Virus record (IMG/VR): IMGVR_UViG_3300015050_000882 | Span: 5,006-69,005 of that record | From: a virus | Lineage: Duplodnaviria; Caudoviricetes | DNA: 64,000 bases | Strand: one strand, 5' to 3' | Shown here: positions 4,881 through 60,749 of the stretch, piece by piece | Layout of the letters: every line of letters begins with the position of its first letter | How positions within the stretch are numbered: the stretch's first letter is position 1 | Position numbers and translations under genes: made by a program | The notes under the pieces: model-generated | The model's database searches: none | Seen by the model: only the letters and a program-made list of their open reading frames with translations | What the model was told of the DNA's origin: nothing

Positions 4881-5217
4881 CTTCAAACACTTGAGCCGAC
4901 ACCGGGATGTACCGCTGGTCACGCCCGGACCACTGGAGGACCGACACCCGGCCATCGTTGTAGTCGGCAGCAATCGCGGTGGCCCAGCCGATCAGGACCG
5001 GGTTGCCCACCAGCAGCAGGTGGTCGTCATCGTTGAAGTCCTGGAGGGCCTCCCGAAGCTCCGGGATGACTGTCTCAGGGTGGAAGGGAGCCGCAGTGGG
5101 TGACAGCAAGAAGCTGAGCTGGCCGTGCTCGGTGGCAGGCTCCAAATCGAACACCGGCACGTACTCCCCGGTGTCCTTGTTGTACTTGCGGTGTTGTTGG
5201 ACAACGTACACGGTCAT
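4867..5217 (-). CDS. Hypothetical protein, small alpha/beta fold
   Basis: TGATG coupling to helicase; DHLLLVGNPVLIGWA. Confidence 0.75.
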   Translation of the reverse strand: MTVYVVQQHRKYNKDTGEYVPVFDLEPATEHGQLSFLLSPTAAPFHPETVIPELREALQDFNDDDHLLLVGNPVLIGWATAIAADYNDGRVSVLQWSGRDQRYIPVSAQVFEVDPA

Positions 5218-6677
5218 CAGAGCCACTCCTTCACTTTGTCTCCCAGGATGACCTGTGCCACCCCGGCCTTGCGCACCAGCGCCTCAATCGCCCGCTCATC
5301 CCGCGTCCCCGGGCAGATCAGGTCGCAGTAGGTGACCGGCTTGAGCTGCCCGATGCGGTGGTTGCGGTCCTCAGACTGCTGGCGGTCCAGCAGCTTGTAG
5401 CTGTTGTTGTAGTACAGCGTGAAGTTGGAGCTGATCAGGGTCAGCCCCTCGCTCATCTGGCTGTTGGCCACGAAGTCTGTGGCATCCCCGGTCTGGAAGG
5501 CCAGCTTGGCCGCCGCCCGGTCGTCATCGCTCACGGTGCCGTCATAGCGAACCGGGTTGCGCCCGTCCTCCCTGAGGGCCTCCATGATCAGGTCAATGTC
5601 CCGGGTCCAGGTGGCCCAGATGATGTTCTTGCCGTTGGTGTCCTCCACCGCCTCACGCAGGAGCTTCAGGCGCGGGTTGACCTTGCGGTCAATGAGCTCA
5701 GTCGGCTCAAGGTCCCCGTCCACTGGAACGTATCCACACAGGACCTGCTGGAGCCGCAGCATGCGGGTGATGGCCAGGGGAGCGGTGATCAGGCCGTCCT
5801 CCCCGTCCAGGAAGGCGGCGAAGTCCTGCTCAAGGCTGGCATAGATGCGGCGCTGGGCCGGTGCCATCTCATAGTACCGCTTGGTGTAGAGCTTGGGCGG
5901 GAGGTCCAGGACATCATCCTTGGTCACGCGGGAGCTGATCCGGGTGATGGCCTCAGCCAGCTCATCCAGGTTCTGGTAGTCAACCAGGATGGGGTACTCA
6001 CGCCCCAGCTGCTGGTTCCACCCTTTGTCCCAGACCCCAAAGTGGGCCTTGAAGGCGGTGAAGGAGGCGATGTTGAGCTCACGCAGCCAGAAGTCCGGGT
6101 CAGTGAACATGACCTGGCTGTAGATGTCAAATGGTCCGTTGGTGATCGGGGTCCCGGACAGCACCCGCCGGTATGCGAAGTGCTTGCCACCCTGGAGAAT
6201 GGACTTTGTGCGGTTGGCGGTCGGTGTCTTCACCCGGTGGCTCTCATCCAGGACGCCCATGCACCGGCGCTTCTTCATGAACTTCCAGACCATCTTCTTG
6301 CCGGCATCAGTCATCCAGGCGTCATAGCTGATTGCCAGGATGGCCAGGCCCCGGTAGGCCAGGAGGTCCTTCAGCTGCCCGGTCTGGCGCACCGTCATGG
6401 GCGACTCAGCCTTGTAGGCATGGGCGCTGTAGTCGATGGCCGGGGACATGTGGGTGGGAAGCTCGTCAGTGATCCAGTTGCGGTGGACGCCATTGGGGGC
6501 CACGACAACCACCGCGTCAATCTTGCCTTCCACGAACAGGTGGTTGAAGGTGTCGATGGTCAGCTTGGTCTTGCCGGTCCCCTGCTCCCAGAACACACAG
6601 AACGCCTCCAGGTCCCGGGATGCCTCCCAAGTGACCTGCTGGTGCTCAAACGGCTTGGTGTGTGGTTGATAGCCCAA
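5217..6677 (-). CDS. SNF2-like (SF2) helicase
   Basis: EQGTGKT, LDESHRVK, LSGTPITN, QSEDRNHRIGQ. Confidence 0.92.
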   Translation of the reverse strand: MGYQPHTKPFEHQQVTWEASRDLEAFCVFWEQGTGKTKLTIDTFNHLFVEGKIDAVVVVAPNGVHRNWITDELPTHMSPAIDYSAHAYKAESPMTVRQTGQLKDLLAYRGLAILAISYDAWMTDAGKKMVWKFMKKRRCMGVLDESHRVKTPTANRTKSILQGGKHFAYRRVLSGTPITNGPFDIYSQVMFTDPDFWLRELNIASFTAFKAHFGVWDKGWNQQLGREYPILVDYQNLDELAEAITRISSRVTKDDVLDLPPKLYTKRYYEMAPAQRRIYASLEQDFAAFLDGEDGLITAPLAITRMLRLQQVLCGYVPVDGDLEPTELIDRKVNPRLKLLREAVEDTNGKNIIWATWTRDIDLIMEALREDGRNPVRYDGTVSDDDRAAAKLAFQTGDATDFVANSQMSEGLTLISSNFTLYYNNSYKLLDRQQSEDRNHRIGQLKPVTYCDLICPGTRDERAIEALVRKAGVAQVILGDKVKEWL

Positions 6678-6754
6678 GGGTGGTGCTCCATTTCTCTCGC
6701 CTGTGGGCCGAATATAGGCCCCCGGGATGGACAGCGCGACGGCCAGTCATTGGT

Positions 6755-7045
6755 GCCCAGGGGCACGCCTCGAACAGCGATAGGGCGGGGGATAACTGAG
6801 AGTTAGTCAAGCCGATGTAAGTGCATGGCGCAGTTGATAAAACTCCAATCCTTAGATAACTTAACTAAAAAAGGGGGGAGGGGTAGAGGGTAAGATTGTG
6901 CCTGTTTTCCCAAGCCTATCCCCGCCCTCTCCGGGCCTAGCGAATTAAACGGGGAGTGTCGTTTAGCTAAGCCGCAGAGTTTTCTCAATCTCTTCATGGA
7001 CTTATGCTCAGAAGCCAGTTTCCACTAAGTTAAGTTAGTCAAGCT
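6755..7045. repeat. Copy 1 of ~290-bp non-coding element
   Basis: Aligns by eye to 34895-35188, with an identical 50-bp core. Confidence 0.92.
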
Positions 7046-7116
7046 CTGCCACATTTCTCCAGGCTTGGTGAGTGGCGCAGCCCCAGTTTTGTGGGCTGCG
7101 TCCACTCGTTGTCAGG

Positions 7117-7332
7117 TCACTTGATCAGCTTGGTCGCGGTGATGCGCCCGTAGATCGCCAGCAGGCCCCCAACAGCGGACACGATGCCCGTGACCAGCTC
7201 CCCGATGGTCTTGAGGTCCTCCGGGCTGATCACATAGCCCGCGACGGCGGCCACACCGGCCACGACAGCACCCAGCCCGCCCCAGAAGGTCTTGGACCCA
7301 AAGATGCTCTTGGTGTCATACAGCAGGTTCAT
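7117..7332 (-). CDS. Putative holin (two TM segments)
   Basis: Hydrophobic 71 aa directly after endolysin. Confidence 0.6.
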   Translation of the reverse strand: MNLLYDTKSIFGSKTFWGGLGAVVAGVAAVAGYVISPEDLKTIGELVTGIVSAVGGLLAIYGRITATKLIK

Positions 7333-7345
7333 TTCAGTCTCCTTG

Positions 7346-8176
7346 TTACAGGCCAGGTGCCTGGACGTGCATCCAGTCAAAGTCACGGGCACGCCCAAGG
7401 GAGGTCCAGCCTTCAGCCTCCCAAATCTTGAACCACGGCAGCGCCCCGGGCTGGGCGAAGTTGGCCTGGGTGTGGTCCCACTTCAGCTGGTTGCGGGTGT
7501 CATCCCAGTCGATTGCGACGCCCCACGCGTGCATGGAGAGGGTGGAGCCGCCGCGCTTCTTGCGGGGAGCGTAGCACCCGGACCAGATGTTGAAGCCCCA
7601 CTCCTCAATCTCCTCAGGGCTGTAATTCTCAGCCACGCGCCCCAGCGCCCGGGTCGCGCTGTCCGCCACCTTCTCATGGCAGCGGAAGGTCGTCACGGTC
7701 TGGGACAGGTTCCACGCCACCTTCAGGGGGAAGGGGGAGGTGACCACACCGGCGGTGCACTGCGGCCCCATGGCCTCGCCATAGAGCTTGACCATGTCAC
7801 GCTGCGTGCCCCAGTCGTGCTTTTGGCCCGCCACCACCGGCTCCGGGTTGTCGTCAGGACGCCAGGTGGGTTCCGGCTTCCCGGTCGCGCGCTCCACCAG
7901 CCACATGCTGAAAGCGAACAGGGTGAGCATCCCGGCGTAACCGTCAATGGCCCCCACCTCAGGGTGGCCGCTGCCCTTCAGGAACAGCTGGACAGCCGCG
8001 ATGGCCTTGCGCTGGAGGGGCCAGCCCTCCCAGCCCTTGGGCAGCTCCCAGTACTGGCTGGAGAGGATGAACTGGATGGCTGACTGGCTCTTTTCACCGA
8101 TCTTGCCGTCAAGCAGTCCAGCGTACTGGCCAGCGGCCTTCAAGGCCATCTGGATTTCAATGTTGGATAGGCTCAT
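7346..8176 (-). CDS. Endolysin: peptidoglycan-binding domain plus M15-family peptidase
   Basis: YAGLLDGKIG and IDGYAG repeats; SMHAWGVAIDW and DWMHVQ Zn motifs. Confidence 0.85.
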   Translation of the reverse strand: MSLSNIEIQMALKAAGQYAGLLDGKIGEKSQSAIQFILSSQYWELPKGWEGWPLQRKAIAAVQLFLKGSGHPEVGAIDGYAGMLTLFAFSMWLVERATGKPEPTWRPDDNPEPVVAGQKHDWGTQRDMVKLYGEAMGPQCTAGVVTSPFPLKVAWNLSQTVTTFRCHEKVADSATRALGRVAENYSPEEIEEWGFNIWSGCYAPRKKRGGSTLSMHAWGVAIDWDDTRNQLKWDHTQANFAQPGALPWFKIWEAEGWTSLGRARDFDWMHVQAPGL

Positions 8177-29340: not shown

Positions 29341-30780
29341 TCATTGTACAATCCTCTTCACAGACAGGTCCTTGCGCATCACCCTGTACCGCGTCTCATC
29401 GCCTGCGTGGTCCTCAGCCTCGGTGTCCACGTCATCAATCTTCTTGTCATCCCGGCTCAGCACTGGGACAGTCTCCTGCCACTGGACACACCGCTTGCAC
29501 ACGAACAGGCCAGCGTGCTCCCTGGGCTCACCCTCCCGCTTGGGCGCGGCGTTGCTCAGGCGCTCCCGCATGACCTGCCAGCCGTTGATCCGGCTCCCGG
29601 GGGACTTGTCAGCCTTCTCCCAGATGACCCCGGCCTTGCGCATGTCCGCCTCAATGGACATGCCATTCTCCTCAGTCCAGATGGCGCTGTCAGCCGGTCC
29701 CGGGTGGGTGCGGCCCTGGATGCCCATCTCCTCCTCCCGGTCCTTGATGCCCTCTGCGATGTCGCGGGCCAGCATCTTGACCCCCTCATTCCGCCGCCCG
29801 GTCCAGCCGTACCACTCTGCCCAGCGGATCAGGTCGCCACGCACCGGCCCGATCAGGCGGCCATCAGCCATCTTGATCGGCTCCCCGTTGCTCTCAGCCC
29901 ACCATCCAACGCTGAAGGGTTTGGATGACCCCCAGTCAAAGCTCCGGTCAATGCGCCATCCCCGGGGGATGAGGCTGGCGGGGAAGTCCGGGAGGAGGTT
30001 CCACTTGGGCCTCCAGACGTCATCGAACATGCCGCCCGCGACAATGTCCCATGAGCCGTCAATCCAGGCTGCCAGCTCTGCGTCATTGCGTGCGGCAGAC
30101 CGGATGCGGCTGATGTACTCAGGGTCAGCGTCCAACAAGATGCGGTTCTCACGGATGTGGCCGTGCAGGGCCATGCGGGGAGGCTCAACACCGCCGTCCC
30201 GGGCGATGGATCCAATGATGGGCCGGTTGCGCATCCCGGGGAGCTGGTACCGGGCCTTGACCCAGTTGTGGCCGATGCCGTAGGGGTTGGTGGTGGAGCG
30301 CACACGCGCCCGGGAGGCCACCTTGGGGTTGGAGGAGCGGCAGCAGGACTGCATGATGGTGAAGCAGTCGGGCGTGGCCCAGGTCGTCAGCTCCTCAAAC
30401 CCAATCCAGGGGTACTCGTGGCCGTGATATGCGTTGTAGTCCTCTGGGCGGCTCATGTGGCGGAACAGCAGCTGCTCTCCCCCGGGCCAGGTCCAGGTGT
30501 AGTTGCTCTCATTGTACTTGGGCGCGTTGCGCATCCGGGCAAACCACTTCTTGGACTTGGCAATCACGTCACCAAGCTCCGGGAAGCTCTTGCGGAACAG
30601 CACGCCACGCCAGTCTGCGCCCAAGCCCTGTCCGGTCTCAGATGCGAAGTCCATGAGCAGGGCATCGGTCTTGCCCGGCCCCCGGGTCCCCTCATACAAC
30701 ACCTCAAAGAGTGGGTTCATCAAGAACTCAGTCTGGGAGCCTGCCTGGGGAGCCCAGGTGATGGGTGCGTGTGCGTTCAA
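29341..30780 (-). CDS. terL: Terminase large subunit
   Basis: GTRGPGKTD, GFEELT, RSFDWG, EDHAGDETRY. Confidence 0.93.
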   Translation of the reverse strand: MNAHAPITWAPQAGSQTEFLMNPLFEVLYEGTRGPGKTDALLMDFASETGQGLGADWRGVLFRKSFPELGDVIAKSKKWFARMRNAPKYNESNYTWTWPGGEQLLFRHMSRPEDYNAYHGHEYPWIGFEELTTWATPDCFTIMQSCCRSSNPKVASRARVRSTTNPYGIGHNWVKARYQLPGMRNRPIIGSIARDGGVEPPRMALHGHIRENRILLDADPEYISRIRSAARNDAELAAWIDGSWDIVAGGMFDDVWRPKWNLLPDFPASLIPRGWRIDRSFDWGSSKPFSVGWWAESNGEPIKMADGRLIGPVRGDLIRWAEWYGWTGRRNEGVKMLARDIAEGIKDREEEMGIQGRTHPGPADSAIWTEENGMSIEADMRKAGVIWEKADKSPGSRINGWQVMRERLSNAAPKREGEPREHAGLFVCKRCVQWQETVPVLSRDDKKIDDVDTEAEDHAGDETRYRVMRKDLSVKRIVQ

Positions 30781-31058
30781 TTCAGCCTCTGGTTGGCCTC
30801 AACGATCAGCTCCCGGAATGTCTCCCGGGCCTGATAGGCGATGTCATCAAAGTCCACCTGCTCCCCGTAATTCTTGCCCAGGTACTCCGCCAGCGCCCCG
30901 CCCGCCGCCTGCACGCTCTGGGCAGTGCGGCCCTCGGTGCCAGCATAGGGGACATCCACCTGGACCTTCAGGCCCTTCCTCATGTCCGAAGTCAGCGACA
31001 CCCGCAGGAAGCGGGACTTGTCGGTGTTCTGCATCAGTTTGATCTCAAGCTCGCACAT
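30777..31058 (-). CDS. Hypothetical protein
   Basis: GGAGG RBS; coupled to terL. Confidence 0.7.
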   Translation of the reverse strand: MCELEIKLMQNTDKSRFLRVSLTSDMRKGLKVQVDVPYAGTEGRTAQSVQAAGGALAEYLGKNYGEQVDFDDIAYQARETFRELIVEANQRLN

Positions 31059-31059
31059 G

Positions 31060-31491
31060 TCAGCCTCCAAGCAGGGTAAGGACCAGCGCCCCCAGCGCGC
31101 CAACGGCCAGGGTCCACTTCAGTTGAAAGGTCGGGTCCTGGACCGATCCCTTGGTGAACACCTTGTAGGCATTCAGGTGGCACCAGGCGGCGATGATGAT
31201 GGGGAGCTGCCGTGAAAAGATGTTGAACAGCGTCCCGTTGCGCATGAACCAGGCGGCAGAGGGGCTGCCGATGTGGGTCAGGGCCAGGTAGGAGGACCAC
31301 CAGATCATGGTGGCCGCCGCCCCGATGAAGGAGGCGGTGACGCCCAGGACAAGCCAGTCAGCGGCGTCCCGGCGCTCCCAGACAGCCCGCCTTGCCTCAG
31401 GGAACCAGTGTTTCAGCACCATGAGGCTGAGGATGATGGCAGGGAAGGAGGTGGCGATGGCCACGCCCTCAATGATTTGACGGTTCAACAC
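31060..31491 (-). CDS. Multi-pass membrane protein
   Basis: About four hydrophobic segments. Confidence 0.7.
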   Translation of the reverse strand: MLNRQIIEGVAIATSFPAIILSLMVLKHWFPEARRAVWERRDAADWLVLGVTASFIGAAATMIWWSSYLALTHIGSPSAAWFMRNGTLFNIFSRQLPIIIAAWCHLNAYKVFTKGSVQDPTFQLKWTLAVGALGALVLTLLGG

Positions 31492-31660
31492 GCTTGATCC
31501 TTTCAAGGGCAGCCAGTGAAAGGCTGACGGTGTGTCCACGCTCCTGTTGGGCATGGATGGTTGACAGGAGAGCCTCCCTGGCCTGGACGTTCTCCGCCCG
31601 GGCCTCCTTCAGGTCGGTGCGCTCCCCCACACCCAACATCTTGCGCAACATCGCCATCAC
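31469..31660 (-). CDS. Small hypothetical protein
   Basis: Overlapping start/stop chain. Confidence 0.55.
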   Translation of the reverse strand: MMAMLRKMLGVGERTDLKEARAENVQAREALLSTIHAQQERGHTVSLSLAALERIKRVEPSNH

Positions 31661-31845
31661 GTCTTGCCCTCCACCTTGACTTGGCTTGCCACTTCCCGCC
31701 AGAAGTCGGCTTGCTGCTTGTGAGCGTCCCTCAGCTCCTTTTGAAGCTCAGTGTTCTGGCTCCAGAGCTTGTAAACCACGAATGACAGGGCGGCGTTAAC
31801 GCCCCCGGCCTGGATGATGTCTCCCCAGGGCAGCTGCTCCATCAT
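31657..31845 (-). CDS. Small membrane/coiled-coil protein
   Basis: Hydrophobic segment then coiled coil. Confidence 0.6.
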   Translation of the reverse strand: MMEQLPWGDIIQAGGVNAALSFVVYKLWSQNTELQKELRDAHKQQADFWREVASQVKVEGKT

Positions 31846-32495
31846 GCCGCTCCCGTGATTTCAACGGTGATGGATGCCCAACCCGACGCCACGCCACCCC
31901 ATGCGGCGTTTGCACTGGCCCATGCCGCCACCCCGGTCGTGGTGTAGGCTCCGCCGATGGTGCAGGCGGAGCCGTTGCCCGTCCCACCCACGCCAAGGGA
32001 CATCCCGGCGGGGACCTGAGTTGAGTCCTGCGTGGTGTTGCGGTGTCCGGCAAAGAACAGGACCACGCTGTGGCCATCAGTGTTTGAAAGGGTCAGGCCG
32101 GTCGCGGTGGGAGCGTTGGTGTTGCCCGTCACCTGTTCAGAGTCAACCCCGATGCCCAGGGGACCGGCTCCCGCCGCCTTGACCACGGCGCAGATCAGGC
32201 CCGTGGCGTTGGTCCAGCCAGTGCAGGTCTCAGAGGGGGAGGCGGCCACCTTGTAGGCGGCGACGCAGCAGTTGGTGTTGACCCCGATGAGGCCCGTGGC
32301 AGTGAAGGCGGTCCAGCCCGCCGGGACAGCCGGGGTGTTGTTGTTCCCGTCCCGATAGGCGAAGGCAACCAGCATGTCGCCTGACGCATGGGTGGGCGGC
32401 GTGACAGAGGTCGTGCTGCTGGCCGCCATCTGGACGTCAGCGTTGATCGGCGCGGCCCCGGCTCCAAACGCATATGGGTCAACCATGAAGCTCAT
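31842..32495 (-). CDS. Gly/Ala/Thr-rich beta protein, likely fibre or receptor-binding partner
   Basis: Composition; coupled to fibre gene. Confidence 0.65.
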   Translation of the reverse strand: MSFMVDPYAFGAGAAPINADVQMAASSTTSVTPPTHASGDMLVAFAYRDGNNNTPAVPAGWTAFTATGLIGVNTNCCVAAYKVAASPSETCTGWTNATGLICAVVKAAGAGPLGIGVDSEQVTGNTNAPTATGLTLSNTDGHSVVLFFAGHRNTTQDSTQVPAGMSLGVGGTGNGSACTIGGAYTTTGVAAWASANAAWGGVASGWASITVEITGAA

Positions 32496-34279
32496 GCCCA
32501 GATCAACGCCCCCTTGAGGCCCAACCCGGCCACGGTGGAGCCTACCTGGTCCACGTGCCAGGTGATCTCATCGTCATCAGCAAAGGAGGTCACGCTGAGG
32601 ACAGAGGGGACAGCCGCCGTGACGCTGGTCTTTTCACTGGCGTCAATGGTCGCCTTGGTCGTGAAGATGGTCGTGCCGTTCTTCTTCACGTCCACGATGA
32701 TGGTGGAGCCGGTCGGTGCCGTCCCGACGCTGATGCGCACGGCGGTCAGGGTCCGGGCACCCACGACACGGTGGGAGAGCTTCTGGCCCGTGGTGAGGGC
32801 GGTGGTCTCATCGCTGAGGGCCACGGTGTCGGGTGCATAGTCGGTGAGGGGCACCGCGTTCTTGGACACCCCGGCCTCCCGCGCCCTGAACCGGCCCGTG
32901 GTGGAGTTGTACCACATGTCACCGTTGGAGGGCCCAGCAAGGTCCCCAGCATTCGGGGTGAGGTTGAGGCCCAGGCTGAAGATGGACACGGCGCTGAAGG
33001 TCTGGGCCAGGGTCCAGGTCTGGGCGATGCCCAGCAGGGCCAGGGTCCCAGAGGCATCGGGGAGGGTGAAGGTGCGGGTGGTCGCGGTCGTGATCCCGGA
33101 TGCCTGGAAGGTAGCCTGCTTGGTCGGGTCGCTGTTGTCCTGGAGCGTGAAGGCGTTGTCCAGCACCGTGATGGCGCTCCCGGAGATGGCGGAGCCGGTG
33201 CGCAGGACCTCAAACCAATTCATGGCGGTCGTGCCAAGGGTGTTGCCCTGCTTGAACGTGGTCACCCAGAGGCTGGAGCCATAGGTGGTGCCCTGATAGA
33301 CGGGGACAACCGCCGCCCGCATCTTGGCAACGGTGTTGGCATCGGTCGCCCGGGTCCACGCCCCTGCGTTGGCGATGTAGATGCCGTTGTCCTCTGGATC
33401 GGTCTGGCCCGTCAGCAGCACCCGGTAGTTGGCGGCAGTCGCCTTCCCGTCCACGGTGATGAAGCCGCCCGTGGCGATGTCCACGTTGCTGACCGACACC
33501 AGGCGGCACGGCTCCTTGAAGCCTGACGTGGGCATCTTGGTCAGGTTGCTCGTGCCCGTCCCGGCGCTCTGGAGCACGTACACAGCACCGTCATCATCCC
33601 ACAGGTACGCAAAGTCAGTGTCCAGGGCGATGTACAGCACACCCTCATCCCCGGTCCCGGGGAAGGAGGCCAGGTCAGCGTACTCCTCCACGTTGTCGTC
33701 AAGCTGGGAGGCGGGGACCTTCCCCAGGGAGTTGAGGCTGGCATATCCGTTGGCCACGCCCTTCCCGGACAGGAGCTGGTAGGCTGACAGGTCAGAGGTC
33801 AGGGCCAGCGTCCCGGATGCGTTGGGCAGCGTGTAGGTCCGGGTGGTGGCGGTCGTGATGCCTGAAGCCTGGAAGGCGGCAATCTTGGTCGGGTCAGCGT
33901 TGTCATAGATGCGGAACAGGTTGTCAGCGTACTCAGACGGGGGAGTGGGCTGGGCCCAGGCGCTCCCGTTGTAAATCCACATGTTGTCGGTGGCTGCCAC
34001 GTACACCAGCCAGCCGGTCTTGGGGGTGTAGAACACCCACCCACCGCCGCTGTAGTCTGCAATCTTCTCCTCCTGCCCAGCCCAGGCTCCGGTCGCGGTC
34101 GCGGCCACGATGTACCTGTCACCCTCAGCCGGGGAGCCGGGGGGAGCTGTAAGGGTCTGGGACGTGACCGCCGCCATGACCAGGGCATCCAGGATGACCA
34201 GAGCGTCATTGTGCGTGACGTGCTTCTGGGACTGGTTGGAGGCGATGTTGGGCAGCCCCAACAGGGTCGTGTTGCTCAT
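32492..34279 (-). CDS. DUF2793-containing tail fibre protein
   Basis: QSQKHVTHNDAL, PPGSPAEGDRYIV, ATGAWAGQE. Confidence 0.82.
   Translation of the reverse strand: MSNTTLLGLPNIASNQSQKHVTHNDALVILDALVMAAVTSQTLTAPPGSPAEGDRYIVAATATGAWAGQEEKIADYSGGGWVFYTPKTGWLVYVAATDNMWIYNGSAWAQPTPPSEYADNLFRIYDNADPTKIAAFQASGITTATTRTYTLPNASGTLALTSDLSAYQLLSGKGVANGYASLNSLGKVPASQLDDNVEEYADLASFPGTGDEGVLYIALDTDFAYLWDDDGAVYVLQSAGTGTSNLTKMPTSGFKEPCRLVSVSNVDIATGGFITVDGKATAANYRVLLTGQTDPEDNGIYIANAGAWTRATDANTVAKMRAAVVPVYQGTTYGSSLWVTTFKQGNTLGTTAMNWFEVLRTGSAISGSAITVLDNAFTLQDNSDPTKQATFQASGITTATTRTFTLPDASGTLALLGIAQTWTLAQTFSAVSIFSLGLNLTPNAGDLAGPSNGDMWYNSTTGRFRAREAGVSKNAVPLTDYAPDTVALSDETTALTTGQKLSHRVVGARTLTAVRISVGTAPTGSTIIVDVKKNGTTIFTTKATIDASEKTSVTAAVPSVLSVTSFADDDEITWHVDQVGSTVAGLGLKGALIWA
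33035..33160 (-). repeat. 42-aa fibre repeat, copy 2
   Basis: DNAFTLQDNSDPTKQATFQASGITTATTRTFTLPDASGTLAL. Confidence 0.9.
33800..33925 (-). repeat. 42-aa fibre repeat, copy 1
   Basis: DNLFRIYDNADPTKIAAFQASGITTATTRTYTLPNASGTLAL. Confidence 0.9.
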
Positions 34280-34806
34280 TCGGCTTCTCCCTTGCCCTCT
34301 GCCTTGTCGCGCTCAGCGATTGAGGCAAGGTACTGCTCCACTGACATCTTGCCGGGGACCACCAGCACACCGCCGGTGATCTCAGCCTGAAGGTTGATGT
34401 TGTCCCTGAACTTCTCCGGGCGGTTGCCCTTGAGCGACACCTCAAGCAGCCGGTCGCTGTACTCCTTGACCGTGGCCACCTTCTTGCCCTTGAAGAACAC
34501 CGGCTTGTCAATCCCCTGGACAGCCCGCCGGTGCATCTCCTCCTCCAGGCCGTCCCTGAACCGCTCCATGGACCGCTCCCAGAGGTTGCGCCAGCGGTCA
34601 TCCCCGTCCTTCTCCCGGTCGGCCATCAGCACCTGGACAGCGTCATAGTCAAAGCCGTGCCGGTCGCAGGCCTTGTACTTGACCCCGATCTCAGAGAGGG
34701 TCTGACAGATCGCGCTGAACTTGTCCCAGTCCAGCTCTGACTTGCGGCCCTTGCCGCTGATTTGCTGTCTGGTGAGGGGCTTTCCGGTCGTGGACTTGGC
34801 TGGCAT
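34276..34806 (-). CDS. terS: Terminase small subunit
   Basis: LEEEMHRRAVQG, VKEYSDRLL, RPEKFRD. Confidence 0.8.
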   Translation of the reverse strand: MPAKSTTGKPLTRQQISGKGRKSELDWDKFSAICQTLSEIGVKYKACDRHGFDYDAVQVLMADREKDGDDRWRNLWERSMERFRDGLEEEMHRRAVQGIDKPVFFKGKKVATVKEYSDRLLEVSLKGNRPEKFRDNINLQAEITGGVLVVPGKMSVEQYLASIAERDKAEGKGEAE

Positions 34807-34831: not shown

Positions 34832-34860
34832 AAACTACCGACAATGAGGCAAAATGTCTA
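34832..34860 (-). promoter_or_regulatory. Candidate late-operon promoter
   Basis: TAGACA-N17-TAGTTT upstream of terS. Confidence 0.5.
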
Positions 34861-34894
34861 GCCCATCCTTGCCCAGCACACACGCACCCCGGGA

Positions 34895-35188
34895 GCCCAG
34901 GGGCACACGCCTCGAACAGCGAGAGGTCGGGGGATAACTGAAAGTTAGTCAAGACGACATAAGTGTATGACACTGTTGTCAAAACTCCAATCCTTAGATA
35001 ACTTAACTAAAAAAGGGGGGAGGGGTAGAGAGTAGAGATATGCCTGTTTCCCCAAGCTAAACCGCCCGCCCCTGCCGGGCCTAGCGAATTAAACGTCAGT
35101 AGAGTTTAGCCAAGTAATGGAGTTTGTTCCATGCCTTCATGGGCTTAGACACAGAAACCAGTTTCCACTAAGTTAAGATAGCTAAGCT
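34895..35188. repeat. Copy 2 of ~290-bp non-coding element
   Basis: Same orientation as 6755-7045. Confidence 0.92.
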
Positions 35189-35256
35189 GACCCCACTTTT
35201 GAGTGGACTTGGTGGGCACCTCGCCTCCATAATCGTGGAGCGGTGCCCACTCGTGC

Positions 35257-35577
35257 TCAGACGCCTCGGTGGGCGGCCAGAACCTCTGCCCATGAACCAT
35301 AGGCTTCATTGCGTGGATCCAGGGCAAGCGGGTCCAGGTGCCCAAACAAGACACCGGCCTTCATGATGGCGTTGGGGTGGTCCTCCCGGCGGAGAACAGC
35401 CATCAGGCCTGCGCATTGCTGAGGCTTGGCCCCTGGCTTGACAATCTCAATCGTCTTGTGACACTGGAAGGCAGTCGCCTCCCGGATGTCCTCCAGCCGC
35501 CGGGGGGACAGCCCGAACAGCTGGCCCTGGCCCCGGCGGAAGGGGCAGTTGTCGCAGGGGGACTTCAGCGCAAACAT
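35257..35577 (-). CDS. Cys/His-rich protein (DUF6283-like)
   Basis: PCDNCPFR, FQCHKT, CAG. Confidence 0.7.
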   Translation of the reverse strand: MFALKSPCDNCPFRRGQGQLFGLSPRRLEDIREATAFQCHKTIEIVKPGAKPQQCAGLMAVLRREDHPNAIMKAGVLFGHLDPLALDPRNEAYGSWAEVLAAHRGV

Positions 35578-39027: not shown

Positions 39028-39064
39028 CCGGGGATAAGTTAGCGCCCGGGCACGCTGTAGTCAA
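39028..39064 (-). promoter_or_regulatory. Promoter with overlapping TTATCCCCGG box
   Basis: TTGACT-N17-TAACTT; box 39028-39037. Confidence 0.75.
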
Positions 39065-43146: not shown

Positions 43147-43361
43147 GTCTTTCTCCTTGTCATGTCGGCAGGGTGCTTCTGGCCCTGGAAGTTGATGTGG
43201 ATCACGTTCACCTCGTGGCGCTTGCCCCAGACCTGGATGCCCTCCCGGGTGAAGCCCACCTCCAGCTGACCCCAGTCCCGGGGGGACACCCCGTCAGGGC
43301 GCTCCTCCAGGCACAGGCCACAGTGGCAGTAGGCACTGATGTTGAGGTCGTTGCTGCTCAC
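43143..43361 (-). CDS. Small Cys-rich protein
   Basis: YCHCGLC; GTGA coupling. Confidence 0.65.
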   Translation of the reverse strand: MSSNDLNISAYCHCGLCLEERPDGVSPRDWGQLEVGFTREGIQVWGKRHEVNVIHINFQGQKHPADMTRRKT

Positions 43362-44038
43362 AGCGCACCCCCCGGGGTCACGGTCCCGGCCTGGAGGTCC
43401 ACTGACCACCAGAAGCCCATCCCGAACACCTGGCACACCATCCCCGCGTCCCGCCAGTCGATGACGATGAGCTCATCATCCCTCATGCAGGTCACAGCGT
43501 TGGGGGAAGCTCCCTCAATGGCCAGGCGCACCGCCCTCATGCAGGTCACAGCGTTGGGGGAAGCTCCCTCAATGGCCAGGCGCACCGCCCTGAGCGGCTT
43601 GTAGAAGTGCCCACCGGCCAGCAGCTGGTAGATCGCCTCAGGCGTGGCCACCGGCTGGGGGTCAACCTCCATGGCTGCGTCCTCCCCTGGGCGGTCGTCA
43701 GCCAGCCACATCTCGCACAGCTCCCCCAGGCTGAGGGCATCGGGGATGACGATGACATGCTCACCGTGCTGCACCTCCCCGTCCCGGCAGGCGGTCCCCC
43801 GGCGGGTGACCATCCCGGTGAAGCCCTGGTTGTGGAGCAGGCTGTCCCACAGGTGGGCGTCCTGCACCGCCTCCTCCACGTCCTCCCGGACGCGCTGCCA
43901 TACCACCTGCGGCACGCCCTCCTGGCTGTAGGCCCAGACGGTGGCCTTCACCCGGCCATCCAGCTCCCGGTCCACGCTGAGGGTCTGCCCCAGGACCGGC
44001 TCCGCCACCGCGATGGCGATGTTGAGGATGCCCTTCAT
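43358..44038 (-). CDS. Hypothetical protein with 18-aa tandem duplication
   Basis: RAVRLAIEGASPNAVTCM twice. Confidence 0.65.
   Translation of the reverse strand: MKGILNIAIAVAEPVLGQTLSVDRELDGRVKATVWAYSQEGVPQVVWQRVREDVEEAVQDAHLWDSLLHNQGFTGMVTRRGTACRDGEVQHGEHVIVIPDALSLGELCEMWLADDRPGEDAAMEVDPQPVATPEAIYQLLAGGHFYKPLRAVRLAIEGASPNAVTCMRAVRLAIEGASPNAVTCMRDDELIVIDWRDAGMVCQVFGMGFWWSVDLQAGTVTPGGAL
43480..43591. repeat. Perfect 54-bp tandem duplication
   Basis: Units start at 43480 and 43534; CCCT microhomology. Confidence 0.95.
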
Positions 44039-49679: not shown

Positions 49680-52037
49680 TCAGAACGGCTCCTTGTAGTC
49701 CTCAGCCTCATCCACAGGCCAGGGATAGGGGCCACCAAACTTGTTGTCCCACCAGGCCCGACACGCCTTGAGGTCAGCCGTCTCATAGAACCACACCCGC
49801 GCCCGGTTGACCTCCTCATGGCCAAAGCGGTCCTGGGTGCTGACATCAGCATAACGCTGGAATGACCTGGGCTTCCCCGGCGGCATAACCTTCCTGAGGA
49901 AGCGGCCCAAGTGGGTCGGGTTGGCCCTGTACATGATCTTTTGCTGGTCGCACCAGCGTGTGTAGTCAGCCTGGAGGTCCCCCTTGCTGAGGATTTCAGG
50001 CCAGCCGTGGTATCCGTGGCACAGCTTCCCGTCCTGCAGCTTGTCATACCACCAAGCCTCCTCAGTGTCCAGGCTCAGCAGCTTCTGCTCCTGCAGCGCG
50101 ACGGTCTTGGGGAACTGGCGCACATCAAAGCCGGTCAGGTCCCGGGTCATCAGGAAGTGCAGCAGCGCCTCCCGGCCCCCGTTGTCCAGCTCCTGGTGTA
50201 TGGCCTTGAAATATGCCTTGTCCTGCATGTTCCCGTCGCCCACGTCCAGCATGAAGTACCGGCGCTCATCGGCCCCGGCGGGCACCACCCAGTCCCCGTT
50301 GGAGGCCATCATCAGGTGGACAAAGTTGGGAGCCGCCTCAGCGTCCACGCCCTTGCCCTCAATCATGATAGTCTCCTCAGTGACCATGGTCTTGAGGATG
50401 GCCTCGTGCTTCTTGTCGCCCGCATAGAACGCCTCATCAGCGAACAGCACGACACAGTCCCTGAGGTGGGCGTTGAAGCTCCCCACCAGGTGCTTGGAGT
50501 CACTGACCTGGAGGAAGTGGCGGCCCCAGAGGGAGCCAAACGCCTTGACCAGCACGCCCTTCCCGGTGCCCATCCGGCCCCTCAGGACCACAGCCACCTC
50601 TCCCGGCGTGTCCGGCTTCTGGACGCATCGCGCCATCCAGTTGATCAGGTACTCGCTGTGGACCGGGTTGCCTGAACAGATGTTGTCCCGCAGGTGGGCC
50701 AGATACTTGTCAATGACCCCGGGCCTGGCCTCACAGGCAAAGCCCTTCCACAGGTTGTAGCTGTCCTTGACCTCCCGCCCGGGCGCAAACACAATGGTCT
50801 TGTACTGACGGCGGTGGGTGTGCTGGAGCCACCACTTGCCCAGGGGAGCCGTGATGTCGTGGCCGTCCTTCTTGCCGATCAGGACCTGTGTATTCATGTA
50901 GCGGTTGCGGAAGTCCTCAAAGCTCTGGCGGCTGATCCGCGTGCGCTGCAGCGCATGGTCCATGATCTCACTGATCACCCGGCACTTGCCCCCGATGTCC
51001 TCAATGACAGCGTGGTCCTCATTGAGCCGCCGCAGGTGGGGGTCAATCGCCTCCTCCCGCGCCCGCTGTATCTGGCGGGCAGCGTACTGCTGAGGCCTGG
51101 GCTGGTCCAGGACGTGGCCGCTGATCTTGTAGTCCGGGTCCAGGATGACCGCCGCAATCTGGTCGTCAGTGCACCCGGCCCGGACCATCTCGCACAGGAC
51201 CCACCAGGCGGCTTCAGACCTGGAGGCATAGCGCCCGGGGTCGTCAGCATCAAAGCCCTGGACAATGAACGCCTTGAGCCGGTCGGACACCTTGGGCCCA
51301 AGCTCATCTAGGCTCTCCAGCCGCGCCAGGTTGCCGCTGATCTTGACCGCTGGCCCAGAGGAGCCAGCCGACTGCACCCGGGGAGCCGGGGTGAACTCCT
51401 TGAGCTGATAGATGCGGGACCAGTCCACCTCCACCACTTTTGAGAGGCAGACCACCCGGCCCTTTGACCGTTTCTTCTTGTTGGGCAGGTTCACGGTCCC
51501 GGGCAGGCGCATGATCCGGTCAATGTTGTGACAGGCATCGGCCTGAAGCAGTATCTCCACCTGGAGGTTGTATGCCTCCAGCTCCTCAGCCTTGTCCTCA
51601 CTCCCGTTGGTGATCTGCTCCTCAGCCAGGAGCCAGAAGCCCTGCATGCCGCCGCCGCTGTCGATGATGACCGTGGGTCGCGGCTTGAAGTCCTGGAGGA
51701 GCTTCAGCGCCCGCTCCCGCTCCTTGTCAATGTCCTCCCCCACCCTGGGGTCCACGTCCACGTGGATCGCCCGCATGCCCCGCATGTCAGTCTTGAGCGG
51801 CTTGGAGGTCGCTGGCCGGATGACTGTGTTGACGGTGAAGTAGATGTTTTGCTTGCCCTGCCGGTCCTCAATCCACCGGGCCATCTCCATCACCTGCTTG
51901 TTGGTGAAGGTGGCCGTGTTGGTCCGGTCGTCAGGCCCCATGTCCGGGAGGATGGAGGTCAGGACCCAAGGCCCCTCCTCACACCAGCCCTGGAGGAAGC
52001 CCACTGCCTCTGATGTTGACCCCTTGATGTCCGTCAT
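49680..52037 (-). CDS. Primase-helicase (RepB-like primase plus SF3/NrS-1-like helicase)
   Basis: VDVDP, IDSGGGMQGFW, DRIMRLPGT; GRMGTGKG, FADE, MASN, DERRY. Confidence 0.88.
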   Translation of the reverse strand: MTDIKGSTSEAVGFLQGWCEEGPWVLTSILPDMGPDDRTNTATFTNKQVMEMARWIEDRQGKQNIYFTVNTVIRPATSKPLKTDMRGMRAIHVDVDPRVGEDIDKERERALKLLQDFKPRPTVIIDSGGGMQGFWLLAEEQITNGSEDKAEELEAYNLQVEILLQADACHNIDRIMRLPGTVNLPNKKKRSKGRVVCLSKVVEVDWSRIYQLKEFTPAPRVQSAGSSGPAVKISGNLARLESLDELGPKVSDRLKAFIVQGFDADDPGRYASRSEAAWWVLCEMVRAGCTDDQIAAVILDPDYKISGHVLDQPRPQQYAARQIQRAREEAIDPHLRRLNEDHAVIEDIGGKCRVISEIMDHALQRTRISRQSFEDFRNRYMNTQVLIGKKDGHDITAPLGKWWLQHTHRRQYKTIVFAPGREVKDSYNLWKGFACEARPGVIDKYLAHLRDNICSGNPVHSEYLINWMARCVQKPDTPGEVAVVLRGRMGTGKGVLVKAFGSLWGRHFLQVSDSKHLVGSFNAHLRDCVVLFADEAFYAGDKKHEAILKTMVTEETIMIEGKGVDAEAAPNFVHLMMASNGDWVVPAGADERRYFMLDVGDGNMQDKAYFKAIHQELDNGGREALLHFLMTRDLTGFDVRQFPKTVALQEQKLLSLDTEEAWWYDKLQDGKLCHGYHGWPEILSKGDLQADYTRWCDQQKIMYRANPTHLGRFLRKVMPPGKPRSFQRYADVSTQDRFGHEEVNRARVWFYETADLKACRAWWDNKFGGPYPWPVDEAEDYKEPF

Positions 52038-53591: not shown

Positions 53592-55637
53592 TCACGCAGC
53601 TTCTCCCCAGGAGGGTCCCACCTCAACGTCCACCCGCATGGGGACGCGCATGGGGATGATGTTGATCATGATCTGCGCAGCCTCCTCAGCGTACTCCCGG
53701 GAGGGAGTGCTGAAGTCAACCTCATCGTGGACCTGGAGCTGCAGGGCGATGCCCTGGCGGTCCATCTCAACAATCGCGGCTTTGGTCTGGTCGGCTGAGC
53801 TGCCCTGGATCAGGCGGTTGAACGCCTTGTGGCACCAGTCATAGCTCCCATCCTCCTTCAGGGGGAAGCGGCAGCGCCTCCCGCCGATGGTGAGGATGAA
53901 GCCTTTTTGGGCAGCCTTCTGCTCACAGGCCTTGGCCATCTTGGCGATGAACGGCACCTCACGGTCAAACTTGTCCATCAGGGCCTGGCCCTCAGAGCCA
54001 GCGGCCTCCCAGACACGTATCTTGAACCCGGCCTGGCGGCCTGCCTCAGCCTTGACCTCCACCTCCTCCCGGGTCGCATAGTCGGCTGTGCGGCGGTCCC
54101 GGCCCTCTCCCCAGGACAGTCTCCAGCAGGTCGGCATGCCCAGGTCGCGGCAGAGCTTGGCCCCGCCCATCCCATAGCTCAGGCCCAGGTAGATGTTCTT
54201 GCAGTACTTGCGGAGCTGCTTGAAGGCGTCCTTGCCCAGGCGCTCCAGGACGTCATCCCCGTGGACCATCCGCGTCATCATGTCGTGGAAGTCGGTGGTG
54301 GGGTCCTCATTGTACCGGCGGGCAGCGTCCAAGGCAGCCCGGTATGCCGCCTCACCGATCAATCGCGGCCCAGCCTCACAGGCGAAGTGGACAGCGTGGC
54401 GCGGCTCCTGCTGGCTGTAGTCCAGGCTGGCCCAGAGCATCCCATCATCGGGCATGTAGATGGATCGCCACATGGGGCCAATCTCTGGGTCCCGGGCTGG
54501 CTGGTTCTGGAGGTTGGGGTCAGCTGAGCTCAACCGGCCATAGGCGGCTCCCTCAGTCTCCCCGCTCCCGTCATCCTTCTGGCGGCGCAGCTGGTTGAAG
54601 GTGCAGTGGATGCGGCCCCGGATCAGGTGGTGCCGGGTCCCGTCAACAAAGGTGGACCGCAGCGTTGCCATCTTCTTGGCGCGGCGCAGGTGCTCCCCCA
54701 CTGGGTGGTCGATGCTGTCCATCACCGCCGCCGTGACGCTGTCCTTGCCCTTGGCGGTCTTGGGCAGGGTCACCCCCAGGTCGGTCAGCACCTCAGCCAG
54801 CAGGGCGGTCTTGGTGATGTCGGTCACCTCCAGCCGCCGGGTGATCAGCGCGTTGACCTTGTCGATGGCCAGCTGCTGTTCCGCCCGCGCCCATGCGTCC
54901 ACCTGGGCCAGCCGGTCCTCTGAGACGGCCACGCCCCGGCGGCGCATCCGCACCAGCACGGGCAGCACCTTGCTCTCCAGGTTGTACACGTCCCACAGGC
55001 CCTGCTCATCAATGGTCCGCTCCTGGCGGCGCAGCAGGGTAAGGGGCAGGCGGGCATCGTGCTCTGCATAGGCCCCCACGTGTCGTGCCGGGAGTGCCCA
55101 GATGCCGCCCTTGCGGTTGTTCCCGTGGTATCCGTAGCTGGCCAGGGCCTCGGTGAGCAGGCGCTCATCCTTCCCCGGGATGCCCGCCCGCTGGGCAATC
55201 GCCTCCAGGCTGTAGCTCATGTGCAGCTCGTTGATCAGCGGGTCGGCCACCTGCACGTCCCTGAACCACTGGGCCTCCTTGAACTCAATCCCCTCCTCAG
55301 CAAGGAAGTCCAGGTCATAGCCCAGGTTGGCTCCGCACACCTGGCCGGTGAAGCCCTTGGCCATGTCGGCCAAGTACCGCTGGACCTGGACAGGGTCCAT
55401 GTTCCCCCCGCCGCCGTGGCGCATGGGGAGGTAGAATGATGGGCCGTCCTCAATGGCAAAGGACACCCCGGCGATGTAGGCACCACGGCGCACGCCCGGT
55501 CCCATCGTGGTCAGCAGCTCATCCCGCGTCTCAGTGTCAATGCCGACGCGCCCGGTGCCCCAGGAGGTCGGGAGGTCTGACATTGAGGGAGGGGTCCAGC
55601 TGCTGTCCGGCTCAAACAGTGGGAGCTGGGCGGCCAA
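53592..55637 (-). CDS. polA: Family A DNA polymerase with 3'-5' exonuclease
   Basis: IDTET, DYSQQEPR, KNIYLGLSYGMG, QVHDE; TTG start after GGAG. Confidence 0.95.
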   Translation of the reverse strand: MAAQLPLFEPDSSWTPPSMSDLPTSWGTGRVGIDTETRDELLTTMGPGVRRGAYIAGVSFAIEDGPSFYLPMRHGGGGNMDPVQVQRYLADMAKGFTGQVCGANLGYDLDFLAEEGIEFKEAQWFRDVQVADPLINELHMSYSLEAIAQRAGIPGKDERLLTEALASYGYHGNNRKGGIWALPARHVGAYAEHDARLPLTLLRRQERTIDEQGLWDVYNLESKVLPVLVRMRRRGVAVSEDRLAQVDAWARAEQQLAIDKVNALITRRLEVTDITKTALLAEVLTDLGVTLPKTAKGKDSVTAAVMDSIDHPVGEHLRRAKKMATLRSTFVDGTRHHLIRGRIHCTFNQLRRQKDDGSGETEGAAYGRLSSADPNLQNQPARDPEIGPMWRSIYMPDDGMLWASLDYSQQEPRHAVHFACEAGPRLIGEAAYRAALDAARRYNEDPTTDFHDMMTRMVHGDDVLERLGKDAFKQLRKYCKNIYLGLSYGMGGAKLCRDLGMPTCWRLSWGEGRDRRTADYATREEVEVKAEAGRQAGFKIRVWEAAGSEGQALMDKFDREVPFIAKMAKACEQKAAQKGFILTIGGRRCRFPLKEDGSYDWCHKAFNRLIQGSSADQTKAAIVEMDRQGIALQLQVHDEVDFSTPSREYAEEAAQIMINIIPMRVPMRVDVEVGPSWGEAA

Positions 55638-55914
55638 CCTTCTTCTCCAATTCAATGACGGTGTTGGTGCGGGCAGCGCCCACCTTCTCAACCGCGTGCC
55701 TCACAGTGGTCCGGTCGCGCCCAAAGACACGCCCAAGCTCAGCCCAGGACACCCAGGGATACAGGAAGTGGGTGAGGTAGATCGCCAGCATGCGGGCATC
55801 GGCCTCTGGCTTCAGCCCGCGCTGCTCAGACAGGATGGCCGACTCAGGCACCCCGGTCGCGTCCCAGACCACCTTGAGGATGTTGGTGATGTTGATGACA
55901 CGCACCCTGGTCAT
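55612..55914 (-). CDS. Standalone DnaA domain IV-like HTH protein
   Basis: ARMLAIYL...SWAELGRVFGRDRTTVRHA versus DnaA IG..FGGRDHTTV.HA. Confidence 0.8.
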   Translation of the reverse strand: MTRVRVINITNILKVVWDATGVPESAILSEQRGLKPEADARMLAIYLTHFLYPWVSWAELGRVFGRDRTTVRHAVEKVGAARTNTVIELEKKVGRPAPTV

Positions 55915-58778: not shown

Positions 58779-59789
58779 TCAGAAGGTCTGGCGGCCAGGG
58801 ACATACAGGGAGCGTGGCCTGCCCTCCCCCGTCCTGGCCCGAAGCCACTTGTCAGTCTCACACAGGCAATTCTGGATGTCAGAGAGGTCAATGGGCGGGA
58901 CCCAGGGTGCCCGCTTCTCCCCCTGCTCATCGAACAGCGCCCGCATCTCCTCCAGCCCCTGCGCCTGGGACAGGCTGAAGTCCACGTCCCGGCCATGGAG
59001 CCGGTTCAGCCCCCGGCGGGACCCAGGCCCCAGGGCAGCCCACGTGTTGATGTCGGTGGCGTTGCGCAGGAGCCGCGTGTGGCGCATGTCCACCACCACC
59101 TGGTACGCCATGAAGGGTCCCCAGCCGATGTACCGCTTGTCCTGGAACCAGCCCCAGACCTGCTCCAGGGTGTGGCCCGTGTTGTCATTCATCGCCCTCC
59201 AGCCGCCCCGGTCCTCCCAGAGCCGCCCCAGGACAATCCGGGCGATGTACTGCTGCTTGGTCCAGCTGTACCACTCCGCCTTGGGGTTGCTCTCCGCCCG
59301 GATCATGTAGGAGCCAGTGTACACCTTCTTGCCCAGGGCAGACCAGACATCCAGCGCGTCCCCCATCCACGCAGGCTCAAAGCCGACGCGGGAGGGCCAG
59401 CTGGGCAGGTCGTTGTTCTTCTGCCCCGGGAACACCTTGGTGTTGATCAGCCAGGCCAGGGTCTCAGGCCAGTTGATGTACCGGGCGGTGGCCAGCATGA
59501 ACCAGAGGTCAGGGTGGTCCTTGAACGGCTCCCGGATGTGCCGGTCAATCCACATCGTCACCCGGTCCAGCTCCCGGAACACGTTGCAGAAGCTGAACTG
59601 CGCCAGAACGGGGTCGCTGGTCAGCGGGCCTGTCTCCCGCATGGCGTAGTGGTCAGGGTCAGCCTCCTCCAGGTCAGCGCCCAGGGGAGCGTGCACGTCA
59701 CCCGCGTCCACGCCCCGGCGCAGCTCCTTGCGGATGTAGATGGCGTGGCGCTCGTTGACCCACTGCCAGAAGGGAGCTGAGTCAATCAC
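58779..59789 (-). CDS. aGPT-Pplase1 / 5-hmdU DNA kinase helical-domain family
   Basis: VNERHAIY, FCNVFRELDRVT, GWGPFMAYQVVVD, GPGSRRGLNRL, QNCLCETDKW. Confidence 0.85.
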   Translation of the reverse strand: MIDSAPFWQWVNERHAIYIRKELRRGVDAGDVHAPLGADLEEADPDHYAMRETGPLTSDPVLAQFSFCNVFRELDRVTMWIDRHIREPFKDHPDLWFMLATARYINWPETLAWLINTKVFPGQKNNDLPSWPSRVGFEPAWMGDALDVWSALGKKVYTGSYMIRAESNPKAEWYSWTKQQYIARIVLGRLWEDRGGWRAMNDNTGHTLEQVWGWFQDKRYIGWGPFMAYQVVVDMRHTRLLRNATDINTWAALGPGSRRGLNRLHGRDVDFSLSQAQGLEEMRALFDEQGEKRAPWVPPIDLSDIQNCLCETDKWLRARTGEGRPRSLYVPGRQTF

Positions 59790-60093
59790 AGAAAGCCTCC
59801 CCCACCAAGGAGCGTTCAAACACCTGGAGCAGCACCCGCCGGTCGGCAGGCTCCCCAGGGTATCCCGACACCGCCGCCGCCACACCCATCAGGGCAATCT
59901 CAGCCGCCACCAGCTGGGGGTCAGCCTGGATGGACCGGGCCAGCTCCTGGAGCTCACGGCTGTCGTGGAGCTTGCGGCAGGCCATGATGTACTCATTGCC
60001 GAACCTGACAATCATCTCCTTGGGGATGGCAGCATCCAGCCTCACAGCCCTGAAGCCGTCTGGTGGCTCCGGTGCGTGCGGATCATCAGACAT
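59782..60093 (-). CDS. Hypothetical protein
   Basis: Coupled ORF. Confidence 0.6.
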   Translation of the reverse strand: MSDDPHAPEPPDGFRAVRLDAAIPKEMIVRFGNEYIMACRKLHDSRELQELARSIQADPQLVAAEIALMGVAAAVSGYPGEPADRRVLLQVFERSLVGEAFCD

Positions 60094-60685: not shown

Positions 60686-60719
60686 TTGTCATTCTCCATT
60701 TCTGACAGTCAGCCCCCGG

Positions 60720-60749
60720 AGCCTATCCCCGGGGTGCAGGGTCGGTCAA
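60720..60749 (-). promoter_or_regulatory. Promoter with inverted CTATCCCCGG variant box
   Basis: TTGACC-N18-TAGGCT; box 60723-60732. Confidence 0.6.

Follow-up and report, generated by a model that had tools for sequence, protein, structure and literature searches.

A conserved two-copy intergenic DNA element, tentatively a pair of replication origin modules, in phages related to Pam3 and YuA

The Bacillus phage SPP1 has two separated origin regions, oriL and oriR, in which short boxes lie beside an AT-rich tract and are read by the G38P protein, oriL being situated inside the G38P gene. In the satellite phage P4, the iteron clusters ori and crr lie several kb apart, crr being free in its orientation, and are bound by the alpha primase/SF3-helicase via its C-terminal winged-helix domain (PDB 1ka8 is this origin-binding domain). 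The origins of SaPI/PICI elements and of iteron plasmids (RK2, P1, pSC101) contain iterons in both directions around an AT-rich region, with a phasing of approximately 22 bp and with DnaA-box-like sites; their word specificity co-varies with the initiator, and they are single and adjoin the rep gene. Phage T4 has several origins, such as oriF and oriG, each consisting of a promoter and a downstream unwinding element, which are not repeats of one another and do not contain iteron arrays.

We identified a pair of intergenic repeats in an IMG/VR phage genome that partly resemble these systems, and for which paired origin-type iteron modules are the best explanation that we can offer, with a confidence that falls somewhat short of even. 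As in SPP1, there are two separated copies (here predicted origins) with shared short boxes beside an AT-rich tract; in contrast to SPP1, no dedicated origin binder is known here, and the copies head two arcs of the genome, evolve in concert and flip orientation. They also differ from the P4 clusters in being 28 kb apart, equal in size and built of words unrelated to the P4 octamer, and from the SaPI/PICI and iteron plasmid origins in being duplicated and in their distance from the candidate initiator gene. The arrangement of T4 oriF and oriG, a promoter with a readily melting tract behind it, would unite promoter data from the Pseudomonas phage YuA with the meltable core described below, although the copies here, unlike the T4 origins, are homologous repeats from a family with iteron arrays. 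In lambda, the OL and OR regions, both of which include an early promoter (compare the trapped promoters of YuA), are similarly bound by one phage protein at common sites that co-evolve. However, our repeats have approximately 300 bp of homology instead of 17-bp operators, are 28 kb apart and invertible, have no repressor that we could find, and contain no clear promoter in this phage.

The DNA analysed (64,000 nt, hereafter the window, whose numbering is used throughout) comprises bases 5006-69005 of a complete IMG/VR virus genome of 69,005 bp with a 123-nt end overlap. Copy 1 of the element (6745-7050, minus strand) lies before the SNF2 helicase operon, and copy 2 (34885-35193, minus strand) before terS; no others were found in the complete genome. 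A preliminary description of the stretch had reported direct repeats here, and a repeat search recovered them as one block of 152 nt with 88% identity (6764-6915 and 34906-35057) and a second of 85 nt with 78% identity (6961-7045 and 35104-35188), amounting to ~80-83% identity across ~305 nt in a MAFFT alignment. The identical 50-nt core that it reported was recovered without mismatch at 6839-6888 and 34981-35030, one in each copy, and has no third site in the genome. As an exact 50-nt match is impossible by chance in 69 kb, this is not a chance repeat. The copies, which had been described as AT-rich, have the lowest GC content anywhere in the genome (0.465-0.53, against 0.645 overall), and the 5-bp stem with differing loops is visible in their alignment.

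Each core consists of an AT-rich tract abutting a G/C-rich clamp, and provides the least stable 30-, 50- and 100-nt duplex windows of the 69-kb genome, ~4.7 SD from the genome mean for the 30- and 50-nt windows. The adjacent, easily unwound AT-rich region of an iteron origin is thus present. A 10-nt word, TTGACTAACT, stands on the minus strand at both ends of copy 1 (distal at 6801-6810, proximal at 7033-7042), as the preliminary description stated, and once in copy 2 (34943-34952, minus strand), where a second site near 35175-35184 is degenerate. The whole genome contains the full word at these three sites only (6801, 7033 and 34943), plus partial ones. The word of this phage can be written CTTGACTAACT, with TAACTTAAC-type variants. 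The reported 10-nt inverted pair was recovered at 6857 and 7028, and the reported TTATCCCC box is present at 6787-6795 and 34929-34937, on the minus strand in both copies, where it reads as a DnaA-box-like TTATCCCCC box. Two open reading frames in this region were rejected as genes: a 64-aa frame in copy 1 (6803-6997), which is cut short by a stop after 14 codons in the other copy and has no counterpart in relatives, and a tiny plus-strand frame behind a G-rich tract, which is not conserved among relatives.

All the genes of this phage are on the minus strand, which changes how the position of the repeats is read. The copies had been described as bracketing the morphogenesis module, and the 28 kb between them do hold the packaging, head, tail and lysis genes (terS, terL, portal, MuF-like head protein, major head protein, tape measure, tail proteins, endolysin and holin). 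Since transcription runs on the minus strand, however, each copy precedes a module in gene sense (the helicase operon and the terS operon, respectively), and the copies are not mere brackets of one module. The order at both sites is the stop of the upstream gene, a strong terminator-like hairpin, the element, ~60-90 nt of non-homologous DNA with a promoter, and then the helicase gene or terS. Upstream of copy 1, the holin gene (7117-7398, minus strand) is followed by a hairpin without a U-tract at 7070-7107 on the minus strand (-31.1 kcal/mol, z -4.18). Upstream of copy 2, a 106-aa open reading frame (35257-35577, minus strand) is followed by a hairpin at 35212-35250 on the minus strand (z -2.38), in whose place relatives have canonical intrinsic terminators. 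The first genes after the copies encode an SNF2-type DNA helicase (5217-6677, minus strand; phrog_62, E 7e-111; 65% identity to the Pam3 helicase) and terS (34276-34806, minus strand; phrog_4044, E 2.4e-30).

Both of these genes have, as read from the sequence, promoters of their own outside the repeat. For the helicase gene, a putative -10 box, TATATT (6711-6716, minus strand), lies just before a conserved leader and ribosome-binding site, and a TAnnnT box occurs at the same position in 12/12 relatives. For terS, a putative sigma70-like promoter (TAGACA, 17-nt spacer, TAGTTT; 34832-34860, minus strand) corresponds in place to a TTGCCN -35 box, a 17-18-nt spacer and a TAnnnT -10 box in relatives. 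We rejected a sigma54 (-24/-12) reading of the terS-proximal promoter, as Pam3 and TM26 carry plain sigma70 hexamers there; to our knowledge, cyanobacteria also lack sigma54. The leader, AGAAATGGAG(C/A)A, is fixed before the first genes of transcription units on the minus strand (3065, 4830, 6684, 39005, 41345, 45232, 47051, 49400, 53519 and 60692). The same motif precedes the helicase gene in Pam3, RHph_TM26, YuA and PaMx11, indicating that it is kept across host phyla and is more than a Shine-Dalgarno sequence.

We found no match to the exact core in IMG/VR, nor by blastn against INPHARED. Relatives were instead obtained through flanking proteins (the helicase) from IMG/VR, metagenomes and INPHARED, and in all those fetched the helicase gene was preceded by a homologous element, AT-rich and dense in words, with a second copy upstream of terS in every relative genome long enough to show it. 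The two copies within a genome are 100% identical in the uncultured relative G001 (split over contig ends), 92% in the cyanophage Pam3, 79% in the Rhizobium phage RHph_TM26, 76% in PaMx11 and 86% in Ab18, and both copies are also present in YuA and in two other IMG/VR genomes. Among Pseudomonas records, 18/18 matched, and 17/18 did so at two or more places per genome. In the genomes examined the number of copies is exactly two, and their places, at the helicase gene and at terS, are syntenic throughout. Such fixed sites and copy number are not those of a MITE-like mobile element or a site-specific recombination site; the relative orientation differs among lineages.

The phages of this group infect cyanobacteria, rhizobia and pseudomonads, and encode thymidine hypermodification, PolA and a P4-family primase-helicase. 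In this phage, genes for a 5-hmdU DNA kinase and an amino-acid:DNA transferase are present at 58779-61607, so thymidine hypermodification is very likely, as in M6 and YuA-like phages; the T-rich words of the element would consequently bear modified bases in virion DNA. A literature search, which did not extend to the original YuA paper, found no paper describing the element, and the family is apparently undescribed. Its wide conservation, the minus-strand orientation of the genes and the trapped promoters inside the YuA copies (see below) were all missed in the preliminary description. Contigs of several relatives (L017, L018, L019, L025, L030 and G001) end within the element. As the element is a repeat, metagenomic assemblies break inside it, which accounts for a practical nuisance in assembling these phages, and the group's IMG/VR genomes recorded as 'linear' are probably circular and complete, having been opened at the repeat.

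The relatives reveal a richer architecture than this phage alone. Most carry one 11-13-nt word of the CGTCTTAAC type, to which the distal word of copy 1 corresponds in position in the alignment, in five to six copies (three forward and two to three reverse). The first two forward words are 21-22 bp apart in 13/20 aligned copies, and 20 bp apart in one more. The word array is followed by a tandem TTAAG-type array with 9-11-bp spacing; there is likewise a G/C clamp, and a second inverted pair is made of a 14-nt block. Direct and inverted words in helical phase, as expected of an iteron origin, are therefore found in relatives; this phage is poorer, with two to three full words per copy against five to six, which counts against the origin reading. 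The words themselves, of 10-13 bp, are specific to lineages: G001 and the contig L008 use CGTCTTAAGG plus GGGGAATAAC, and the words of YuA and PaMx11 are unrelated. In YuA, different microsatellites follow the shared TAAGT-type array in the two copies, (AAG)6 at positions 652-670 and (TATC)6 at 33190-33214 of its record (L125). We also considered whether TTAA/TTAAG is purged from the genome outside the elements and rejected this, as the Markov-corrected O/E is ~1 and there is no depletion in G001.

When 20 element copies were placed in a maximum-likelihood tree, copies paired by genome in this phage, Pam3, TM26 and the T9 type, with support of 100/100, and element identity between genomes is only 40-57%. 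In contrast, the very close genomes V38696 and V08255 group by site (87% between helicase-side copies and 84% between terS-side copies, against 72-73% within a genome). Pairing by genome, yet by site in close genomes, indicates episodic gene conversion between the copies and not a recent one-off duplication. We additionally identified a change of orientation: in PaMx11 and Ab18 (Abidjanvirus), the copy beside terS is reversed with respect to all genes, and the best match in ZC01 is also on the strand opposite the helicase gene. The element thus functions independently of its orientation, and the conserved role can be neither that of a leader RNA nor that of a dedicated promoter with a fixed direction.

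The preliminary description offered, as one of three readings, that the copies are recombination anchors, through which homologous or site-specific exchange would excise or swap the virion module. The copies do flank the morphogenesis module and evidently undergo gene conversion, and the same early arc is joined to different virions in Pam3, a myovirus, and YuA, a siphovirus. Nevertheless, the stable inverted arrangement in Abidjanvirus (and in the best ZC01 match) would give inversion and not excision on exchange, the blocks common to distant phages (<=15 nt) are not long enough for homologous exchange to be efficient, defective genomes would result from crossing-over between direct repeats, and no recombinase is associated with the element. 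An anchor function is accordingly unsupported, and we consider it highly improbable.

A second reading in the preliminary description was a structured non-coding RNA. With it we weighed a leader acting in cis, for instance in antitermination; either would be encoded by both copies. Some features might suggest this: copy 1 plus its flank folds better than shuffled sequences (z -4.3), long inverted repeats occur in some relatives (a sub-segment of the contig L023 has z -3.4), and a YuA promoter lies upstream of part of the element. However, the folding signal of copy 1 plus flank comes from the upstream terminator hairpin, and the element proper shows z of -1.6 and +0.25. Rfam yielded no match to the element, tRNA and tmRNA scans returned nothing, and RNAalifold gave no consensus pair in 20 homologues. 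A candidate short hairpin or intrinsic terminator ending in a C-rich/T-run was rejected as unstable (z +0.4 and +1.1). Several apparent stems reuse one word that also stands unpaired elsewhere in the element, which, together with the lack of consensus pairs, Rfam matches and folding signal, fits a protein-binding array at the DNA level better than an RNA, and the inverted copy in Abidjanvirus rules out a leader role. The RNA reading is thus already largely refuted computationally, and we give it hardly any credence; a cis-acting DNA platform, and not a gene, best explains the element.

The YuA promoters provide the only experimental data, and they fit another reading of such a platform as well as they fit an origin. 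In the GenBank record of YuA, both sigma70 promoters recovered by promoter trap (489-568 and 33014-33160) fall within the element, one per copy, and precede the helicase gene and terS by 300-420 nt. ONT-cappable-seq of YuA found one sigma70-like transcription start site and promoter, consistent with the promoter trap (PMC10914365). These data support a duplicated early-promoter/operator region, in which a host-RNAP promoter lies within an array of phage-regulator sites, like lambda OL/OR serving PL/PR; the regulator would switch both genome arcs together, and the copies would co-evolve because it must bind both. They are also compatible with a transcription-activated origin. That the trapped promoters, the only two in YuA with clear -35 and -10 boxes, occupy the copies speaks for the operator reading, as do the start of the two arcs at the copies, after terminators, and the concerted evolution, which suits shared-regulator sites. 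Each copy in this phage also contains a TTGACT hexamer, and nearly the same box as overlaps, at variable positions, six dispersed sigma70-like promoters (TTATCCCCGG) occurs once in each copy. These promoters (TTGACY, 17-nt spacer, TAnnnT) lie at 39028, 41401, 45284, 47086, 49437 and ~60720; others are found beyond the window, at positions 1135 and 4254 of the genome.

Several observations weigh against such an operator region. The orientation of the element is not fixed toward the regulated gene, and an internal promoter would fire away from terS in PaMx11, Ab18 and apparently ZC01; moreover, the genes downstream are each served by a conserved putative promoter that is not part of the repeat. 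A sigma70 consensus scan found none convincing inside this phage's copies, where the candidate hexamers read from the alignment have spacers of 14-15 nt, and the family does not keep the YuA hexamers in a fixed position. PHROGs and Pfam searches detected no repressor-like or Rep-like protein, so that no regulator was found, and the element's own words are missing from the dispersed promoters. We regard a promoter/operator function, the main rival to paired origins, as possible but on the whole unlikely. We also rejected co-variation between the element box and the dispersed promoter box, since the promoters of G001, which contains ten TTATCCCCGG boxes, often two per promoter, keep this box, and its element uses a different word.

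The copy next to terS raises the further possibility of pac-like packaging recognition sites, bound by the small terminase and present twice. One copy is always directly upstream of terS, the regions bound by terS typically consist of short repeats in arrays (SPP1, P1 pac), and headful packaging tolerates free orientation. The element does not, however, co-vary with its cognate terS: Pam3 and RHph_TM26 share their element and word with the V38696/T9 type, and their terS has no detectable homology to that of this phage and V38696, making terS an unlikely reader of the word. The second copy, moreover, is 28 kb off, beside the helicase gene, and YuA-like reads assemble as circles without read peaks (PMC4482731). 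We consequently judge packaging sites to be quite improbable.

The reading of paired origin modules raises the question of which protein would bind them. Twin origins for the primase-helicase had been the remaining proposal of the preliminary description; it is the best supported of its three readings, on the basis of the phased words, the meltable core, the free orientation, a P4-type primase-helicase with a variable winged-helix-like tail, and a word that does not track terS, and it stands as an unproven proposal. The P4-family primase-helicase (49680-52037, minus strand; DUF5906 SF3 helicase by Pfam) is our best candidate reader. Its core is 55-81% conserved, and its last 120 residues are markedly more variable and the least conserved part (residues 665-785 in the conservation profile, encoded at 49683-50045 on the minus strand). 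Between V38696 and Pam3, which share a word, the tail is 72% identical and the core 80%, against 57% and 81%, respectively, between this phage, whose word is an outlier, and G001. Tail identity thus appears to track word type more than overall relatedness, in a comparison of six genomes only and in protein termini, which vary anyway.

An AF2 model of the tail (pLDDT 85) predicts a helix-strand-helix-helix-hairpin-helix unit. The structural neighbours of this model are all winged-helix DNA binders with middling Z scores of 4.7-6.4: RFX (6.4), ORC/Cdc6/Cdt1 (approximately 5), the C-terminus of the NrS-1 primase-helicase (4.9) and the P4 origin-binding domain (4.7). The protein thus resembles P4 alpha in domain order and in its predicted winged-helix-like tail, but the tail compares with 1ka8 at Z 4.7 only, and sequence similarity to the P4 protein is limited to the helicase core. 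A Foldseek search of the tail model gave nothing below E 1e-3, and the tail sequence had no match in the PDB. Against the origin reading, the primase-helicase gene is ~15 kb from either copy, and many origins adjoin their initiator gene. Cumulative GC skew shows only a change of slope near copy 2 and no signature of an origin or terminus, and is uninformative on this point because all the genes are on one strand.

We additionally identified a stand-alone protein with a DnaA C-terminal (DnaA-box-binding) domain (55612-55914, minus strand; PF08299, 48.5 bits, E 9e-13), a candidate reader of the TTATCCCC boxes. This DnaA-domain-IV protein probably reads the TTATCCCCGG box of the six dispersed promoters.

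The lineage-specific words thus lie on either side of a G/C-rich clamp and of the 40-50 bp that melt more easily than any other part of the genome. Under the reading of paired origin modules, a sequence-specific phage protein would bind the words, open the AT-rich core and start DNA replication. The primase-helicase may act as this binder through its winged-helix-like C-terminal tail, possibly assisted by the DnaA-domain-IV protein at the TTATCCCC box. The two copies would serve as twin origins, or as an origin and a cis enhancer, as in SPP1 oriL/oriR or P4 ori/crr. The genome has only two long gaps in transcription, and the copies occupy them, each between an upstream terminator and the promoter of the next gene; in YuA, the host sigma70 promoter in each copy could activate or prime the origin. 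Occasional gene conversion would hold both copies to the specificity of one protein as the word drifts among lineages. As a bolder extension, which we consider less likely than not, the whole supergroup of thymidine-hypermodifying phages (Pam3, RHph phages and Mesyanzhinovviridae) may use paired origins with the primase-helicase tail as reader and copies matched by conversion; the word would then define a replicon specificity group, and the YuA promoter would fire the origin rather than express genes.

Laboratory models belong to this phage group, namely YuA and M6-like phages of Pseudomonas and the cyanophage Pam3, whose structure has been solved. A conserved, concertedly evolving and flippable two-copy element provides a precise and small target for experiments in cultured phages. 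If the pairing of word and protein is true, the word would be a marker of replicon specificity and a handle for phage engineering.

Finally, we noted some minor features of the genome between and beyond the copies. The gap from terS to a terL-like open reading frame (29341-30780) is ~3.5 kb, within 29341-34279, and this frame matches terL profiles only in part. A 595-aa structural-type frame with an internal 126-nt repeat (33035 and 33800) lies between the two; it was considered as terL and rejected, as it proved to be a structural protein. Judging from these sequences, the terL of this phage may be split or unusual. Outside the region between the copies, an open reading frame at 43358-44038 contains a perfect 54-nt (18-codon) tandem duplication at 43480-43587.
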